Positions 381 to 8,439 of a stretch of DNA of 10,619 nt are shown piece after piece; position 1 is the first letter of the stretch; every line of letters starts with the position of its first letter. Source of the stretch: Candidatus Wukongarchaeum yapensis (GTDB lineage Archaea > Asgardarchaeota > Wukongarchaeia > Wukongarchaeales > Wukongarchaeaceae); NCBI GenBank assembly GCA_016840425.1, contig JAEOSI010000059.1, positions 1 through 10,619 of the forward strand, written 5' to 3'. Below the pieces are notes generated by a model that searched no databases, was not told the origin of the DNA, and saw only the letters and a program-made list of their open reading frames with translations. The position numbers were made by a program, and so were the translations under genes.

Positions 381-487
381 TCATCTTTTCCCCTTGATAT
401 CTCCAACAACTATTTGAAGAGTTTCTCTTTCAATTTCAGGTCGAATAAAGTGGCACAGATTTGGAGGAGTAAGAATCCTCGCCCCAC
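381..487 (-). pseudogene. Frameshifted, truncated copy of the small gene at 1103-1273
   Basis: GGAGGT RBS (498-493) lies 5 nt before GTG (487). After a 1-nt deletion near codon 3 the frame reads RILTPPNLCHFIRPEIERETLQIVVGDIKGKR*, aligning with KVFIPLNVCQFIQYEGDIEVLQIVVGDIRQEE. 397-467 vs 1182-1252 is 57/71 nt identical without gaps. Confidence 0.7.
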
Positions 488-879
488 CTTTTACCTCCTG
501 AAGCGCTACATACATCAGTAACTTTAATTTTTATGACGCCAGCGCACTCCAGATCCCATTTTTTAAGCTCATCTGTATATCTATCAAATAACGGGCCAGA
601 AGTTACATATTCCTCAAAGGTTCCATGAACTCTACAAGCAGTCATAGGCGGCTTATAAACGATTATACACGCATTCTTAGTTGTTTCAAGGTTCTTTTTT
701 GTGGTTGAAGCCCAGATAATTCCGAAAGCAAGAGTTTCTTCATCTATCGCCATAAGAGGTCCCAAAATTATCGCGTGAGGTACCCCTTTATCGTCGGCTG
801 TGGCCAAAACTTTAACAACCTCCTTTTGTGTTTCTCCAGGCTTCAATAAATCCATAATTTCTTTCGGTATATACACCAA
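436..879 (-). CDS. Pyridoxamine 5'-phosphate oxidase-like FMN-binding split-barrel protein
   Basis: VLATADDKGVPH and TTKKNLE motifs and ~140 aa length fit the family. GGAGG RBS precedes TTG/GTG start. The C-terminal ~17 codons overlap the pseudogene at 381-487. Confidence 0.8.
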   Translation of the reverse strand: MVYIPKEIMDLLKPGETQKEVVKVLATADDKGVPHAIILGPLMAIDEETLAFGIIWASTTKKNLETTKNACIIVYKPPMTACRVHGTFEEYVTSGPLFDRYTDELKKWDLECAGVIKIKVTDVCSASGGKRWGEDSYSSKSVPLYST

Positions 880-1890: not shown

Positions 1891-2907
1891 ATGGGCGAAG
1901 TTTTCGAAAATCATTTTGAAGAGTTAGAAAATTGTTGTTTGTGCGAGTGGAAATGTGGCGTAAACAGGCTTAAAGGGGAAAAAGGTGTTTGCAGGCTCGG
2001 AAAGCCTGAAATTGCTTCTACTCAACTTCATCCTGCTCCTCCTCAAAGTTACACCGTGTTTTTTGTGGGTTGTAATTACAAATGTTTAGGATGCCAAAAT
2101 TATCAGATTGCCCATTTTCCTGACCAAAACCGAGCTTCTCACTGGTTTATGGATCCAAAATTTGCTGCAGAAGATGCGATTATGATGATTAATTCTCCCT
2201 TTGGCAGATCCATAAGGGCTGATAGAATCTTCTTTTCAGGGGGGGAAGCTACCTGTTCTCTACCTTATGCTGAGAAAATTGTAGAAGAAGCAAGAAAGAT
2301 AGATCCTAGAATAAAGGTTAATTTTGATACGAACGGTTTTTTAACCGAGGAATCTTTGGAAAGGGTTTTACGTTTTTCAAACTCGATAACATACGATATT
2401 AAGGCTTATCATGATGATGTTCACAGGGCGTTAACCGGGGCTCCCGTTGGACCTGTTTTAAGGAATGTCGAAGTGATTGGGAAGGAGGCTAAGGATAAAC
2501 TTTGGGAGTTCAGGGTATTAGTAATACCAGGATTAAATGAGGGTGAAATCAAACCAATATGTGATTTTATAGCTAGCATAGATCCTTCTTTACCCTTGAA
2601 TTTTCTTGCTTTTAGGCCAAATTTTGTTCTAGATCGTTATTATGGTGCACCGCGTGATTTGATGAGAAAAGCTGTTAAAATTGGGCGAATGGCAGGCTTG
2701 GAGCATGTTGATTGGTGTGGTAGTTCTGGAATAAAAGGTCTGGATTATGTTATAGAAAAAATAGATGTTTACATGCGAGAAGAGTCTAAAATAGCTGGGG
2801 GTTTTGCATTTTTAGCTGGGTGTAAAACCCATCCTAGAGATTGCGGAAGATGCAAAAACAATCAAAACTGTTCTTTAAAGAAGTATCAGCCGATAAGGAG
2901 AACATAG
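1891..2907 (+). CDS. Radical SAM protein, PflX / glycyl-radical activating enzyme-like, with N- and C-terminal Cys clusters
   Basis: GCNYKCLGCQN is the CxxxCxxC motif; FSGGEAT is the GGE motif; DTNG strand. N-terminal CCLCEWKCGVNR...GVC is PflX-like. C-terminal CKTHPRDCGRCKNNQNC. AGGGGG RBS upstream. Confidence 0.88.
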   Translation: MGEVFENHFEELENCCLCEWKCGVNRLKGEKGVCRLGKPEIASTQLHPAPPQSYTVFFVGCNYKCLGCQNYQIAHFPDQNRASHWFMDPKFAAEDAIMMINSPFGRSIRADRIFFSGGEATCSLPYAEKIVEEARKIDPRIKVNFDTNGFLTEESLERVLRFSNSITYDIKAYHDDVHRALTGAPVGPVLRNVEVIGKEAKDKLWEFRVLVIPGLNEGEIKPICDFIASIDPSLPLNFLAFRPNFVLDRYYGAPRDLMRKAVKIGRMAGLEHVDWCGSSGIKGLDYVIEKIDVYMREESKIAGGFAFLAGCKTHPRDCGRCKNNQNCSLKKYQPIRRT

Positions 2908-2912
2908 CCTGC

Positions 2913-3956
2913 TTAATTGTTGTTTTTTGTTTTTATCCGTTTTTTAAATATTGTGATTATGTCTGTTAGTACGGCGCTTGCTGTTTCTCTACCCCCTGCT
3001 CCCTCGCCAATTATGGTGATTTCTCCTGCTAAGTCGCTTTTAAAAGTGATGGAGTTTAAGGTACTGCTTACTGCGAGGGGAGAGGTTTTTGGAAGCAATT
3101 TCGGTCCTACTTCTAATTTTCCTTCTTTTGCTGATGCAACATGTTTTATCACAAGGTTATTTTCTTCTGCAAGTTCCACGGCCTCTTGAGTTATGTTTCT
3201 TATGCTCTCTATTTTTATCTCATCAAATTTTACAAATCTTTCTTCTGGTCTTCTTAGAATGGTGTTTGTGAGAATTAAGAGTTTGCCCGCTGCATCTATC
3301 CCGTCTATGTCATAGCTTGGATCCCTTTCAGCGTATCCTAGCTCTTGGGCTTCTTTTAGCGCTATTTCAAAAGGTATCTTTTCCGAGACCATTCTTGAAA
3401 GGATAAAGTTTGTTGTTCCGTTTAATATGCCTTCAATACTGATTATTTTGCTACTTTTTAGGTTTTCTCTGGCTAAGGAAAAAACAGGAATGGCACCGCC
3501 TACAGCTCCTTCATAATGAAGAAATCGTTTGTTTTCTTCAGCAAGAGTGATAAGTTCTTGGAAAGCAACAACCAAGGGTCCTTTGTTGGCCGTAACTACG
3601 TCTTTTCCCGATTTTAATGCTTGTCTTATATGTCCTAATCCCGGTTCACCGTCCCCGATATTTGTAGGTGTGAGTTCAACAACAATATCGGCTTCCATTT
3701 CTGGGATTTTGTCATAGGCTTTTACATCTTTGACCCATTGGGGATGTTCCTTATAATCTTTTATTGAGAGGAGGCTTTGTATATCAAGGCCCGTGTTTGT
3801 GTTTGATATAAAGCCCCCATCACTCTTAAAAACAGCGTTAATATGCAAGTTTAACCCGTAAATTTCTTTTAAGAAGCTTTTTTTCTCAATAACTACGTTT
3901 AAAAAGCCTTTTCCTACGGTTCCAAATCCTACTAAAATTATGCGAACGTCAGCCAA
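2913..3956 (-). CDS. hom: Homoserine dehydrogenase
   Basis: VGFGTVG Rossmann motif, VVTANKGP, YEGAVGGAIP, GILNGTTNFIL, EAQELGYAERDPSYDIDGIDAAGK, GEGAGGRETASAV. TTG start with GAGGAG RBS. Confidence 0.96.
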   Translation of the reverse strand: MADVRIILVGFGTVGKGFLNVVIEKKSFLKEIYGLNLHINAVFKSDGGFISNTNTGLDIQSLLSIKDYKEHPQWVKDVKAYDKIPEMEADIVVELTPTNIGDGEPGLGHIRQALKSGKDVVTANKGPLVVAFQELITLAEENKRFLHYEGAVGGAIPVFSLARENLKSSKIISIEGILNGTTNFILSRMVSEKIPFEIALKEAQELGYAERDPSYDIDGIDAAGKLLILTNTILRRPEERFVKFDEIKIESIRNITQEAVELAEENNLVIKHVASAKEGKLEVGPKLLPKTSPLAVSSTLNSITFKSDLAGEITIIGEGAGGRETASAVLTDIITIFKKRIKTKNNN

Positions 3957-4720: not shown

Positions 4721-4933
4721 TTAGCGTTTCCATTGAGCGTATGCTAATTTGACATCTTCTGCTATAACCGTTTTTCTTCCCGCATGTCTTGATAGTTCTA
4801 TTGCCCTCTGGGAAATGTCACGGCCAATGTCTTCTAAAGATTCCCTTAAAGCTTTCGCCGCACCAATTGACACTCTCTCTGCCCCTGCTTTTCTAACTAT
4901 CCTATCAAGGGGAGCTAGTGGTATTTCAGTCAT
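4721..4933 (-). CDS. Archaeal histone (HMfA/HMfB type), downstream copy
   Basis: ELP/IPxAP..RI..KAGAERVS...RHAGRKTV.AEDVKLA histone-fold signature, 70 aa, GAGGTG RBS. Confidence 0.97.
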   Translation of the reverse strand: MTEIPLAPLDRIVRKAGAERVSIGAAKALRESLEDIGRDISQRAIELSRHAGRKTVIAEDVKLAYAQWKR

Positions 4934-4972
4934 TTTAACACCTCAAACTCTTTATCTTATTTACACAATTTA

Positions 4973-5185
4973 TTACCGTTTCCATTGATTGTATGCTAGT
5001 TTGACATCTTCTGCTATAACCGTTTTTCTTCCCGCATGTTTTGATAGTTCTATTGCCCTCTGGGAAATGTCACGGCCAATGTCTTCTAAAGCTTCCCTTA
5101 AAGCTTTCGCCGCACTAATTGACACTCTCTCTGCCCCTGCTCTTCTAACTATCCTATCAAGGGGAGCTAATGGTATTTCAGTCAT
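4973..5185 (-). CDS. Archaeal histone (HMfA/HMfB type), upstream copy
   Basis: Same signature; 65/70 aa identical to the downstream copy; GAGGTG RBS. Confidence 0.97.
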   Translation of the reverse strand: MTEIPLAPLDRIVRRAGAERVSISAAKALREALEDIGRDISQRAIELSKHAGRKTVIAEDVKLAYNQWKR

Positions 5186-5335: not shown

Positions 5336-5634
5336 TATAACCTTTACCTTTTACGCAAAATTATTCTTTTTAAAAAAAGTCACGTATAAATTTAATTTCT
5401 ATTTTCTAACATGAAGGTTACTATATCCAATTATACACCAACTAAAAGTTTAATTATGAAAAATTATTTAATATAACAACTCTTCTAGGGCTTATCTCAA
5501 AGAAATAGGGTTATCACTTTTCTGTATCTTTTCATCATAATAATTTCTTATGAGGGCTGAGGATGAACTTTAATTGGAAACGATTAAAACTGCTTCCAAC
5601 CATATTTTTTCTCATGAATGGAAAAAACAGCATT

Positions 5635-5913
5635 ATGGTAAAAGTTAGGGCTGTAGCGTCTTTGTCAGATATTTTTGGAAATGAAGTTTGTGAGCTCGTA
5701 ATTTCAAGAAGAGCTACTTTAAAAGATGTTTTTGATAGAATTTCTTCTGATAATTCAAGGTTCTCAAAGATTGTTTTTTCTGAAAAAGGGACCGTAAATC
5801 CCACTATAATGGTTCTTTTAAATGGTAAAGAGGTTTCTTCTTTTGATCCGGAAAAAATAAAGATAAAAGAGGGGGAAGAAATAGTTTTCATCCCTTTAAT
5901 TCATGGCGGTTGA
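5635..5913 (+). CDS. Ubiquitin-like MoaD/ThiS/Urm1 (SAMP) family protein
   Basis: 92 aa from ATG 5635 (MVKVRAVASLSDIFG); IMVLLNG; LKEGEEIVFIP-like strand; C-terminal IHGG. Upstream in-frame ATGs (5563, 5614) would add an atypical extension. Confidence 0.9.
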   Translation: MVKVRAVASLSDIFGNEVCELVISRRATLKDVFDRISSDNSRFSKIVFSEKGTVNPTIMVLLNGKEVSSFDPEKIKIKEGEEIVFIPLIHGG

Positions 5914-6050
5914 AGGTTTAAACTTGGTTTTTGTGAAGAAAGGGCTCTATTTTATAACAGTAAGGGAGAGCAAGAGTTTCCATAATCTTATTAAAAGGCG
6001 AAAAACATAATCATAAAAGAAAGACTTAGGAGTAGAAATGGGGTTCTGAA

Positions 6051-6713
6051 GTGCAGAAGTGGTTGAATAAACCCTTAGTCGTTGCAACAACGGATATTCA
6101 GGCATATTATTGCTTAGTCAATTTGTTAAAAAAAGCAGGTTTTAGTGATTTTATGAGTTTATTACCTGAATCAGAACTGCCTCCTAATGCGATTATTCTT
6201 ACGACGAAGGTTGAAGGTAAAAAGATAGCGCGTAGGAAGGAGGGCAACTTTAGGGTTATAAGTTTTAATTTTAATGGAAGGGATAAAACGGTCGAAGACC
6301 TTGATTTAATTGTTAAAATTCTGGAACAGGAAAAGGGTAAAAAAGTTTTTGAAAAAAGTGTTATAGGGATAGATCCTGGTTCTAAATATACGGGGCTTGC
6401 TTTGTTAGTTGAAGATCAGGTGGTTTATACCTGTAGGCGCCAAGGGATTGAAGAGGTTGAAAAAACTCTTTCTAAGATTCTTAGATTAGTTAAAGCACGA
6501 AGAAGAGTGGTAAAGTTAGGGGAAGGGTGGGGAAGAGAAGCAAAGAAATGGATTGAACATTTTAAGAATTTTGTTAAACGTAAAAAAAACGTCGAGTTTT
6601 ATGTAGTTCCTGAACATGGAACTACTAAAAAGAAGTCCAAAAATTTTGGAAAAGACCAGGCTGCAGCTATTCAAATTGCCTATCGTCCTGAAAATTTTGA
6701 GCGTGATGGTTGA
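6051..6713 (+). CDS. YqgF/RuvX-like RNase H-fold nuclease with an extra N-terminal domain
   Basis: IGIDPGSKYTGLA, VPEHGTT and KDQAAAIQIA match the three acidic-residue motifs of YqgF-type nucleases, after an ~100-aa N-terminal alpha/beta region. GTG start. Confidence 0.72.
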   Translation: MQKWLNKPLVVATTDIQAYYCLVNLLKKAGFSDFMSLLPESELPPNAIILTTKVEGKKIARRKEGNFRVISFNFNGRDKTVEDLDLIVKILEQEKGKKVFEKSVIGIDPGSKYTGLALLVEDQVVYTCRRQGIEEVEKTLSKILRLVKARRRVVKLGEGWGREAKKWIEHFKNFVKRKKNVEFYVVPEHGTTKKKSKNFGKDQAAAIQIAYRPENFERDG

Positions 6714-6764
6714 AGATTTATGGAAAAGCCAAAGATTTTTGAGAAGAGCGTGATGGTTGAAGAT
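6699..6764 (+). repeat. Exact 19-bp direct repeat, 47-bp period, across a gene junction
   Basis: GAGCGTGATGGTTGAAGAT at 6699-6717 and 6746-6764; flanks extend the match imperfectly. Confidence 0.9.
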
Positions 6765-7067
6765 CTAAAAATTAACTGTTTTACAGTGGTTTTTGAGAAT
6801 GGTGTTTTTGTGTCAATATTTGGGGAAAAAGCGAAGATTGGGAGTCTTGTTTTAGCCGTTCCGATGACGATCGATGGTGAAACGCAATCTATAGTCATTT
6901 CTGGTAAAGAAGACCTGTTGCCGAGGGCGTTTTCAGAAAAGGTTGCTCATGTTTTAAATAAGTTTGTTCTGTTATCATTAAGTGCTGATGTTGCCGCTGA
7001 AGCTAATAAAAAGGAAATATTTGAGTTACTAAATTCTGTGATGGTGGAGATAAAAAAGGAGAGCTAA
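6720..7067 (+). CDS. Proteasome assembly chaperone 4 (PAC4)-like / LpdD-like small alpha/beta protein
   Basis: Pattern VFVSIFG..KIGSLVLAVP...SIVISG...AFSEKVAHVLNKFVLLS plus a terminal helix resembles the PAC4-type consensus (lG.La.a.P...s..l.G...a..lA..l.k.v.vS). 6 nt after the nuclease gene and 2 nt before ubiX. Confidence 0.55.
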   Translation: MEKPKIFEKSVMVEDLKINCFTVVFENGVFVSIFGEKAKIGSLVLAVPMTIDGETQSIVISGKEDLLPRAFSEKVAHVLNKFVLLSLSADVAAEANKKEIFELLNSVMVEIKKES

Positions 7068-7069
7068 AA

Positions 7070-7651
7070 GTGGGCACAAGAAAAAGGATGATTGTGGCTA
7101 TTACGGGGGCAAGTGGTGTAAATTATGGTATAAAGTTTCTTGAAGTCCTTAAAAATTTAGGCTTGGAAACCCATCTTATACTATCTAATGCTGGAAAAAA
7201 GATAATATCTATTGAAGGACGACTTAGTGTTTCTGAAGTTGAAAAGTTGGCTTCATACACGTATCATGAAGACGATATAGGTTCTGCTTTGGCTAGCGGT
7301 TCTTTTATCGTTGATTCTATGGTGGTAGTTCCTTGTAGCATGGGAACCCTTTCTGCCATTGCGCATGATTTCGAGAACAATCTTATAACGAGGGCCGCTG
7401 GATGCGTATTAAAACAAGGAAAAAAGTTAGTTCTAGTACCTCGCGAAACTCCCTTAAGCATTATCCAGCTAGAGAACATGGTGAAAGTTGCAAAATCTGG
7501 GGCAATTATTCTTCCAGCAATGCCCGCATTTTACCCCCAACCAAAGACCATCAAAGATTTAGAGGATTTCATTTGCGGCAAAATCCTTGACCTTTTAGGT
7601 ATAGATCACCAACTTTACAAAAGATGGGAAGGAGAAAATAAGAAGATTTGA
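7070..7651 (+). CDS. ubiX: Flavin prenyltransferase UbiX
   Basis: ITGASG, LASGSF, VVVPCSMGTLSAIA, NLITRAA, LVLVPRETPLS, PAMPAFY motifs; 193 aa. Confidence 0.96.
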   Translation: MGTRKRMIVAITGASGVNYGIKFLEVLKNLGLETHLILSNAGKKIISIEGRLSVSEVEKLASYTYHEDDIGSALASGSFIVDSMVVVPCSMGTLSAIAHDFENNLITRAAGCVLKQGKKLVLVPRETPLSIIQLENMVKVAKSGAIILPAMPAFYPQPKTIKDLEDFICGKILDLLGIDHQLYKRWEGENKKI

Positions 7652-7730
7652 AAGGGATAGGAATCATCGCAAATCATAGAATCCAAAAATCCTGTTTTCG
7701 GACAAAAAATCGTCTACTGTCTATTATTTA

Positions 7731-7757
7731 TTTTTTTATGTTTGAGCGAATTTTTTT
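7731..7757 (+). terminator. Oligo-T tracts, possible terminator of the ubiX operon
   Basis: T7 runs at 7731-7737 and 7751-7757 between convergent genes; archaeal intrinsic termination uses oligo-U tracts. Confidence 0.35.
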
Positions 7758-7824
7758 GAGGTTTTTAGGATTATTATGCATATCACGGCTTAAGTTATTA
7801 ATACTACTAATAGTTGCCAGAAGT

Positions 7825-8439
7825 TCATGTTGAAGCGGATTTGAAGAGAAAGTCTTTCAATTTTCCATCATAATATTTGGTAGCCGGGCAGCCTAAACAA
7901 TGTTTTTTTTGAAACTTCTCGCATTCTTTACAGTTAAGGTTGCAAGGCGTTACCTCTTTGTTTGTTTGTGTGAGCTGTAATCGTATGGGCATGAAAGGCG
8001 GGAAAAGCTGTGTTCCGACATGGAGAACGTTGCTCCTACGGATTCCGGGGAATGTTCTTATAACACATGAGGTAAGTATTGTTTCAAGGGTTTGTTTGTT
8101 CTCTGCGTACACGATTGCCATAAGGTCGTATTCACCGATAATGCTTGTAAGCTGAATGATTCGTGGACAGTTCTTGAAAGTGTTGACAATTTCTTGTTTC
8201 TTTTCAGAATTTTCAGTTTCAATCAAAACTACCACGATTTCTAGGTTCAATTTGGAAGGGTTTACGCCTATGTAAGGCTTTATGAACTGTTCTTCCTTGA
8301 GTTTTAGTAAGCGTTCTCTTACGGTTACGTGGGATAATCCGACTTTTCTGCCGAGCTCGGAAAGAGAAATTCGAGCGTTTTCTGCTAAAAGCGCCATGAT
8401 ATGAATGTCAACATCGTCAAGCTTTTTTTCTCGAGCCAT
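7825..8439 (-). CDS. Lrp/AsnC family regulator with C-terminal Cys-rich extension
   Basis: LDDVDIHIMALLAENARISLSELGRKVGLSHVTVRERLLKL HTH; TSIIGEYDLMAIV RAM-domain motif; tail CNLNCKECEKFQKKHCLGC. ATG 8439 preferred over TTG 8448. Confidence 0.93.
   Translation of the reverse strand: MAREKKLDDVDIHIMALLAENARISLSELGRKVGLSHVTVRERLLKLKEEQFIKPYIGVNPSKLNLEIVVVLIETENSEKKQEIVNTFKNCPRIIQLTSIIGEYDLMAIVYAENKQTLETILTSCVIRTFPGIRRSNVLHVGTQLFPPFMPIRLQLTQTNKEVTPCNLNCKECEKFQKKHCLGCPATKYYDGKLKDFLFKSAST

Follow-up and report, generated by a model that had tools for sequence, protein, structure and literature searches.

The small protein examined here has 115 amino acids (aa) and is encoded immediately upstream of ubiX in a 10,619-nucleotide (nt) stretch of DNA from Candidatus Wukongarchaeum yapensis (contig JAEOSI010000059.1; "the window" refers to the whole of this stretch). 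We propose, with moderate confidence, that it is an accessory or maturation factor of the mevalonate decarboxylase that depends on prenylated flavin mononucleotide (prFMN). Within the PAC3/PAC4/LpdD superfamily, the protein falls in an archaeal PAC4-like branch, and the proposed role is based on its fold, its homology to the bacterial protein LpdD, conserved surface motifs located in the same loops, and an operon linkage to ubiX or ubiD that persists in two phyla. As a whole, the archaeal family is probably not a proteasome factor but an undescribed LpdD-superfamily helper in the route to archaeal lipid precursors. The window corresponds to contig C17 in a 92%-complete archaeal metagenome-assembled genome (MAG; G000) of 2.16 Mb and 277 contigs, and the features of immediate concern are as follows:

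5951..5957, + strand: TATA-like box TTTATAA, a candidate archaeal promoter element (weak, from a pattern scan)
6051..6713, + strand: YqgF/RuvX/RuvC-like protein of predicted RNase-H fold, 220 aa, GTG start
6720..7067, + strand: PAC3/PAC4/LpdD-fold protein (PAC4-like), 115 aa, ATG start
7070..7651, + strand: UbiX flavin prenyltransferase, 193 aa, GTG start
7731-7737 and 7751-7757, + strand: two T7 runs, an inferred candidate archaeal oligo-T terminator

The gene neighbourhood provides the strongest evidence for a role with UbiX and UbiD. We surveyed 61 Asgard genomes belonging to 20 families (f), where genomes of one family are not independent counts, and found PAC4-like genes in ~38 of them, a single UbiD gene per genome in 56, and UbiX above the cut-off in 44. 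In 14 genomes (f1, f3, f8, f15 and f16) the PAC4-like gene immediately precedes ubiX, the two being co-oriented and <30 nt apart, and in the three f20 genomes it lies 250-560 nt upstream of ubiX; ubiD comes next after ubiX in f3, f8, f15 and f20. It is positioned directly upstream of ubiD in G005 (f5) and G025 (f4) and two genes from ubiD in the remaining two f4 genomes. Linkage to ubiX or ubiD within two genes was thus observed in 21 of the ~38 carriers, representing 8 families, and the outer flanks of these clusters vary (PEP (phosphoenolpyruvate) carboxylase, FolD/SHMT, the nuclease-like gene, or a VWA protein). The order on Promethearchaeota contigs is PAC4-like, ubiX, ubiD, acnX large and acnX small, a cluster that contains the complete UbiD branch of the archaeal mevalonate pathway.

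The linkage extends to a second phylum. Among 61 Thermoproteota genomes, 23 carry a PAC4-like gene, which is located directly upstream of the mevalonate-type ubiD in 13 of the 23 and adjoins ubiX in none of them. The stop codon of the PAC4-like gene overlaps the ubiD start in Nitrosopumilus. Two UbiD paralogs are present there; the one linked to the PAC4-like gene is 32-41% identical to AcnX-linked Asgard enzymes and the other only 25-28%, and on this comparison the PAC4-like gene pairs with the mevalonate-type paralog and not with the other. We also note that one Thermoproteota PAC4-like gene upstream of ubiD (G116:C1:197266-197597, - strand) is split over two frames, possibly by a frameshift or a sequencing error. 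An earlier note on this DNA, prepared from the letters alone, had proposed to examine adjacency to ubiX and ubiD across Asgard, Bathyarchaeia and TACK genomes, and it proves to be conserved in Asgard archaea and in Thermoproteota, Nitrososphaeria included.

Genomes that possess UbiD and in which UbiX was not found are informative with regard to the partner of the PAC4-like protein. Among Asgard archaea, these are G004, G025 and G044 (f4) and G005 (f5), where a CoaBC-sized gene is the only match to the Flavoprotein family; one such genome is a single contig. No UbiX was detected at E <= 1e-20 in 21 of the 61 Thermoproteota genomes, and UbiD is present in 58; the genomes where the UbiD family is present and UbiX was not found include G073, G077, G081, G085, G089, G097, G105, G113, G117, G121 and others. 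The PAC4-like gene still stands by ubiD when UbiX is not detected, both in Asgard f4/f5 and in Thermoproteota G077, G085 and G117, and therefore the decarboxylase, not UbiX, is the constant partner. A complementary pattern was observed in three MAGs of f17 (78-83% complete), where proteasome genes are present and no UbiD, UbiX, PAC4-like or LpdD-type gene was found. This pattern is only suggestive because it involves a single lineage of incomplete genomes.

The enzymes on either side of the proposed function can be assigned from their profiles and neighbours. The third gene of the window cluster is unambiguously identified by its sequence as a UbiX flavin prenyltransferase, the enzyme that makes prFMNH2: it scores 237.5 bits with NF004685 (cut-off 188) and 232.7 bits with TIGR00421 (cut-off 108.9; residues 6-186 on profile positions 1-181), and it matches the Pfam Flavoprotein family with an E-value of 1.2e-42. 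The single UbiD of the genome is encoded on contig C59 (L033), scores 301.8 bits with TIGR00148, and is followed by an open reading frame of DUF126+AcnX type; the same UbiD-then-AcnX order is found in Promethearchaeota and in G056. Because of the adjoining AcnX-type dehydratase, the C59 UbiD is the mevalonate-pathway decarboxylase encoded with its dehydratase, an enzyme that the earlier note had named among those dependent on UbiX. The same note reasoned that the client acts in trans, which overstates the distance. On the 27-kb contig L062 from a near-identical organism, the gene order of the window is kept and continues into genes for a B12-binding protein, an SBF transporter, a DGC protein and an ArsR regulator and then into ubiD, located ~5.7 kb 3' of ubiX and in the same orientation. 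The interval between ubiX and ubiD is 1.5 kb in a sister species that is without the ~4-kb Lrp-TauE-B12-SBF-DGC block and has the ArsR gene inverted. Since L062 runs the window gene order into ArsR-ubiD, C17 and C59 are probably adjacent pieces that were split by the assembly.

Structural comparison places the 115-aa protein in the same superfamily as LpdD. A first AF2 model built from the single sequence (predicted local distance difference test score, pLDDT, 50) was discarded, and a model based on a 51-sequence alignment was used instead. This model has the PAC3/PAC4/LpdD fold, and the structures it matches are all PAC3, PAC4, Pba3/4 or LpdD, as the earlier note had anticipated; the highest TM-score was obtained with human PAC4 from an assembly intermediate of the 20S proteasome (8qyj_M; TM-score 0.81/0.83, root-mean-square deviation 2.3). 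The 115-aa protein gave only chance-level matches in a phmmer search of PDB sequences and 19.3 bits with PF21758, under the cut-off of 27. The profile of the archaeal PAC4-like family recovered human PAC4 from PDB sequences (E 0.0055) and did not recover LpdD. PF16093 is matched by 43 of the 51 family members (best E 2.3e-11) and PF21758 by 8 of the 51. When PF16093 was run against this genome at E <= 0.01, nothing matched, the window protein included, and as controls gave no match either, the search is uninformative on absence. Members of the 90%-identity cluster of the 115-aa protein, named by NCBI as Candidatus Hodarchaeota or Asgard group archaeon, carry the label 'hypothetical protein'. 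The expectation that the protein would be auto-annotated as PAC4 is therefore wrong here, with PF16093 unmatched and the cluster so labelled, though right for the Nitrosopumilus members.

LpdD offers the closest functional precedent. LpdD of Lactiplantibacillus plantarum is cotranscribed with ubiX, binds prFMNH2 in the reduced form only, and is pulled down together with E. coli UbiD, to whose activation it contributes (PMC10865409). Its strictly conserved His35 and His61 bind metal together with Asp63, and the H35A substitution abolishes prFMNH2 binding in vitro (PMC10865409). The protein is described as rare and archaea are unmentioned (PMC10865409). The earlier note had ascribed reduced prFMN binding and a PAC-like fold to LpdD, and the paper bears out both. 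LpdD structures are available as PDB 8PO5, 8PZO, 8PZH and 8P4W, and the Pfam family is PF21758 PAC_bac, alias LpdD_chaperone (Pfam 38.1).

The PAC4-like and LpdD-type families are homologous (HHalign 97.1%, E 5.4e-11), with their motifs in the same columns: F-E-N-G aligns with G-x-D, K/R-x-G with H-I-G, and E64 with D72. The LpdD His37 column is occupied by Lys39 in the 115-aa protein and by Lys or Arg in 51 of 51 family members, the His70 column by a variable residue, and the Asp72 column by Glu64. The G-I-H histidine of LpdD has no counterpart in the PAC4-like family, 24 of whose 51 members contain no histidine at all; the 115-aa protein has one, which is not conserved. By these HHalign columns the His35/His61/Asp63 metal site is absent from the 115-aa protein, His35 being replaced by an invariant Lys/Arg and Asp63 by Glu. 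The suggestion that the 115-aa protein is an archaeal LpdD-like prFMN chaperone holds in part: fold, homology and linkage to ubiX/ubiD speak for it, but with a PF21758 score below cut-off and no His/His/Asp site the protein is not a strict LpdD. Like LpdD, the 115-aa protein has a PAC3/PAC4-like alpha/beta fold and is encoded beside ubiX, here with a 2-nt gap. Unlike LpdD, its gene precedes ubiX, so that the order is reversed, and its proposed client is the mevalonate-pathway decarboxylase, whereas the LpdD client is an aromatic acid decarboxylase; it also differs by the absence of the G-I-H motif and of the metal site.

Elsewhere in this genome the PAC4-like profile gave one more match, a weaker one, which led to an LpdD-type paralog of 133 aa on contig C159 (L032:265-666, + strand). 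This protein scores 102.3 bits with PF21758, matches L. plantarum LpdD directly (E 3e-8) and retains P-H-I-G, H-K-D and G-I-H; the adjoining genes encode a DUF4443 regulator and the large subunit of replication factor C, and it is not linked to ubiX or ubiD. The presence of this true LpdD-type gene rules out the 115-aa protein as the LpdD orthologue of the organism. It is possible that the two proteins might pair in the manner of PAC3 with PAC4. LpdD-type genes occur in 17 of the 61 Asgard genomes with varied neighbours (glycine-cleavage P protein, aldehyde:ferredoxin oxidoreductase, seryl-tRNA synthetase), and only in G056 does one adjoin ubiX, with ubiD-acnX on one strand and ubiX-lpdD on the other. 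PF21758 is matched by 18 of 18 LpdD-type proteins, and the PAC4 profile by 5 of the 18 as well.

Other small proteins encoded with ubiX/ubiD are known. PhdC/YclD prenylated-flavin maturases and VdcD/BsdD small subunits are encoded with ubiX/ubiD and aid UbiD activity (PMC13040415, PMC10865409). The 115-aa protein resembles them as a small protein in this genomic setting, but no structure of PhdC, YclD or VdcD was among its fold matches, and unlike PhdC, which oxidises the prFMN radical catalytically, nothing suggests that it is a catalyst. The eukaryotic counterparts are the alpha-ring assembly chaperones PAC4/PSMG4 (Pba4/Poc4) and PAC3/PSMG3 (Pba3), represented by PDB 8QYJ, 5WTQ, 2Z5E and 2Z5B and by PF16093 and PF10178. 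The 115-aa protein shares its fold with eukaryotic PAC4 but has no PF16093 match and no PAC3-like partner or proteasome gene nearby, and a ubiX/ubiD genomic context is never that of eukaryotic PAC3/4.

We hypothesize the following sequence of events. UbiX makes prFMNH2, which is used by the UbiD-type trans-anhydromevalonate-5-phosphate decarboxylase, and the 115-aa protein most likely helps to load or mature the cofactor in the decarboxylase, as LpdD does in bacteria, by putative binding of prFMN. Because the His/His/Asp site of LpdD is replaced, the cofactor, if bound, would have to be held by different chemistry, perhaps by direct contact with its phosphate. The direct target of the protein may be the decarboxylase and not UbiX, because the PAC4-like gene tracks UbiD even where UbiX is not found. 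A predicted complex of UbiD with the 115-aa protein returned a score of 0.00 ('no answer') and is not evidence either way.

Several observations weigh against this proposal. By sequence the archaeal PAC4-like branch is closer to eukaryotic PAC4 than to LpdD. The LpdD metal triad is gone, and in LpdD the H35A substitution abolished prFMNH2 binding in vitro. A true LpdD-type paralog is already present in the same genome. About 45% of the PAC4-like carriers lack any linkage to ubiX or ubiD. In f2, f12, f13 and one other MAG the PAC4-like gene is next to or near a gene for a ~430-aa HD + HD_assoc_2 protein (loci L015, L020, L022, L023, L025, L027-L029, L031 and L039), which is thereby its second recurring neighbour; in f6 the PAC4-like gene is ~20 kb from ubiD, and on a Heimdall contig it is unlinked. 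In one MAG it lies behind a PAN-type proteasome-activating ATPase with a 400-nt gap (L038, GCA_016294945.1 contig, 1894-3872), the sole proteasome-related neighbour seen among the loci examined. Furthermore, 10 of the 56 UbiD-bearing Asgard genomes contain neither a PAC4-like nor an LpdD-type gene, and therefore the factor is not obligatory.

The main competing explanation casts the 115-aa protein as a subunit, structural or regulatory, of the UbiD-type decarboxylase, stabilising or gating it without binding prFMN of its own. Its role, though not its fold, would then be like that of VdcD/BsdD in aromatic acid decarboxylases. The overlapping stop and start codons in Nitrosopumilus would suit such a subunit, as would the genomes in which the PAC4-like gene stays by ubiD without UbiX (Asgard f4/f5 and the three Thermoproteota named above) and the loss of the cofactor and metal site of LpdD; small integral UbiD subunits such as VdcD are also known (cited in PMC10865409). 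We nevertheless consider it unlikely, given that most Asgard operons place the PAC4-like gene before ubiX and not before ubiD, that the family is homologous to a proven prFMNH2 binder, and that those 10 of 56 UbiD-bearing Asgard genomes do without either chaperone-like family. It is less probable still that the protein works with the YqgF/RuvC-like protein in RNA or DNA processing and that ubiX is merely co-transcribed; of all the explanations weighed here, we give this one the least credence. The nuclease-like gene is indeed kept beside the PAC4-like gene in Asgard f1 and f15 and is two genes off in Nitrosopumilus. However, most PAC4-like-ubiX/ubiD clusters are without it (f3, f8, f16, f20, f4 and f5), every cluster that has it also contains ubiX or ubiD, and the PAC fold shows nothing that evidently points to nucleic-acid binding.

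A true proteasome assembly chaperone, that is, an archaeal PAC4 orthologue whose adjacency to ubiX/ubiD is a neutral inherited order, is likewise improbable, ranking between these two. Such a function would agree with the sequence affinity to eukaryotic PAC4, with the best TM-score match being human PAC4 in a 20S assembly intermediate, with the host being an Asgard archaeon of the Hodarchaeota group, with the one MAG in which the gene is found beside a PAN ATPase, with the SAMP/Urm1-like and E1-like/JAB genes upstream in the window, and with the persistence of the family in lineages without UbiX. Yet the ubiX/ubiD linkage survives divergence at the family and phylum levels with changing flanks, which is rare for neutral synteny, and no proteasome alpha or beta gene adjoins the PAC4-like gene in any locus examined. 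The f17 lineage keeps proteasomes without PAC4-like, UbiD or UbiX genes, and SAMP is not a constant neighbour. In archaea, 20S particles assemble by themselves from one or two types of alpha subunit, which leaves nothing obvious for PAC3/PAC4-type subunit ordering to act on. On balance, we retain the reading of the 115-aa protein as a factor of the prFMN-dependent decarboxylase.

Within the window, the layout is consistent with a single transcription unit, and the three genes form a candidate operon. They are co-oriented with gaps of 6 nt (nuclease-like gene to 115-aa gene) and 2 nt (115-aa gene to ubiX) at 6051-6713, 6720-7067 and 7070-7651, in agreement with what had been read from the letters before. 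A strong ribosome-binding site, AAGGAG, precedes the GTG of ubiX by 8-13 nt. The TTTATAA element is found ~100 nt 5' of the first gene, inside the 137-nt spacer behind the SAMP/Urm1-like gene, and the + strand runs of at least seven T within 5500-7900 both lie 3' of ubiX. The gene order is above chance, because it is found again in many genomes that are only distantly related. Three short, low-depth metatranscriptome contigs from one run (95-99% alike) span 7081-7886, which corresponds to ubiX and its 3' flank, with DNA carry-over possible; these three contigs do not cover the PAC4-like and nuclease-like genes. Near-identical DNA was found in marine sediment, mangrove and marsh metagenomes.

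The first gene of the cluster had been called a YqgF-like nuclease, and from its sequence this is a fair label. It just passes the RRXRR profile (PF14239, a weak 27.1 bits; cut-off 25) and falls below that of RuvX (PF03652, 21.5 bits; cut-off 29.2), with both matches spanning residues 76-199. In an alignment with Asgard and Nitrosopumilus homologs, GIDPG (D108), E188, T191 and D202 are invariant, which provides the acidic residues (G-x-D-x-G, E and D) of the family, and an N-terminal alpha/beta domain of ~100 aa precedes this RNase-H-fold acidic set. The profile of the nuclease-like family matched no PDB sequence. Homologs lie directly upstream of PAC4-like-ubiX-ubiD in Asgard f15, also accompany the cluster in f1, and are found two genes upstream of PAC4-like-ubiD in Nitrosopumilus.

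Other genes of the window include a small modifier gene of SAMP/Urm1/MoaD-like type at 5563-5913 (+ strand), 137 nt upstream of the unit, and the 3' end of a gene for a ThiF-E1 + JAB fusion protein at the window start (1-294, + strand), which is complete in L062. This ubiquitin-like neighbourhood is not kept in other lineages, and the SAMP/Urm1 neighbour was rejected as a proteasome tie for the PAC4-like gene, since SAMP is kept in no other locus. A PNPOx-like flavin-binding protein is encoded at 436-879 (- strand; PF01243 27.6 bits, cut-off 28.1), 5 kb from ubiX, and no evidence ties this protein to prFMN handling. Two tandem genes for 70-aa archaeal histones (CBFD_NFYB_HMF) are located at 4721-5185 (- strand) and are also present in the near-identical contigs.

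The LpdD paper is the only one we found that joins 'UbiD' and 'proteasome assembly chaperone' (PMC10865409), and we found no paper on the archaeal family. What is new here is that a true LpdD-type paralog coexists in this genome, that the replacement of the metal site is seen at residue level, that the setting is of the Hodarchaeota group, and that a nuclease-like gene travels with the cluster. Also new are the specific pairing with the UbiD paralog of mevalonate type and the lineage that has proteasomes but neither UbiD nor a PAC4-like gene.

The archaeal mevalonate UbiD-type decarboxylase makes the precursor of all archaeal membrane lipids, and enzymes of the UbiD type are notorious for the difficulty of activating them away from their native hosts. 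If a conserved, undescribed helper is encoded together with ubiX/ubiD, it would matter directly for the reconstitution of the mevalonate route and of other prFMN enzymes. More tentatively, and with considerable doubt, we suggest that eukaryotic PAC4 (perhaps PAC3 as well) descends from an archaeal prFMN/UbiD accessory protein that was re-used for alpha-ring assembly after eukaryotes left the UbiD-dependent mevalonate route. If so, the His-poor archaeal branch without the metal-binding histidines would be an evolutionary bridge from a cofactor chaperone, LpdD, to a protein-assembly chaperone, and a protein of the ancestral type would still be encoded with ubiX/ubiD in Hodarchaeota-group Asgard archaea. 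To our knowledge, eukaryotic PAC3/PAC4 have no prokaryotic relatives besides their structural likeness to LpdD; with such a helper they would gain an archaeal sister family with a different, testable job, present in a relative of the lineage that gave rise to eukaryotes.

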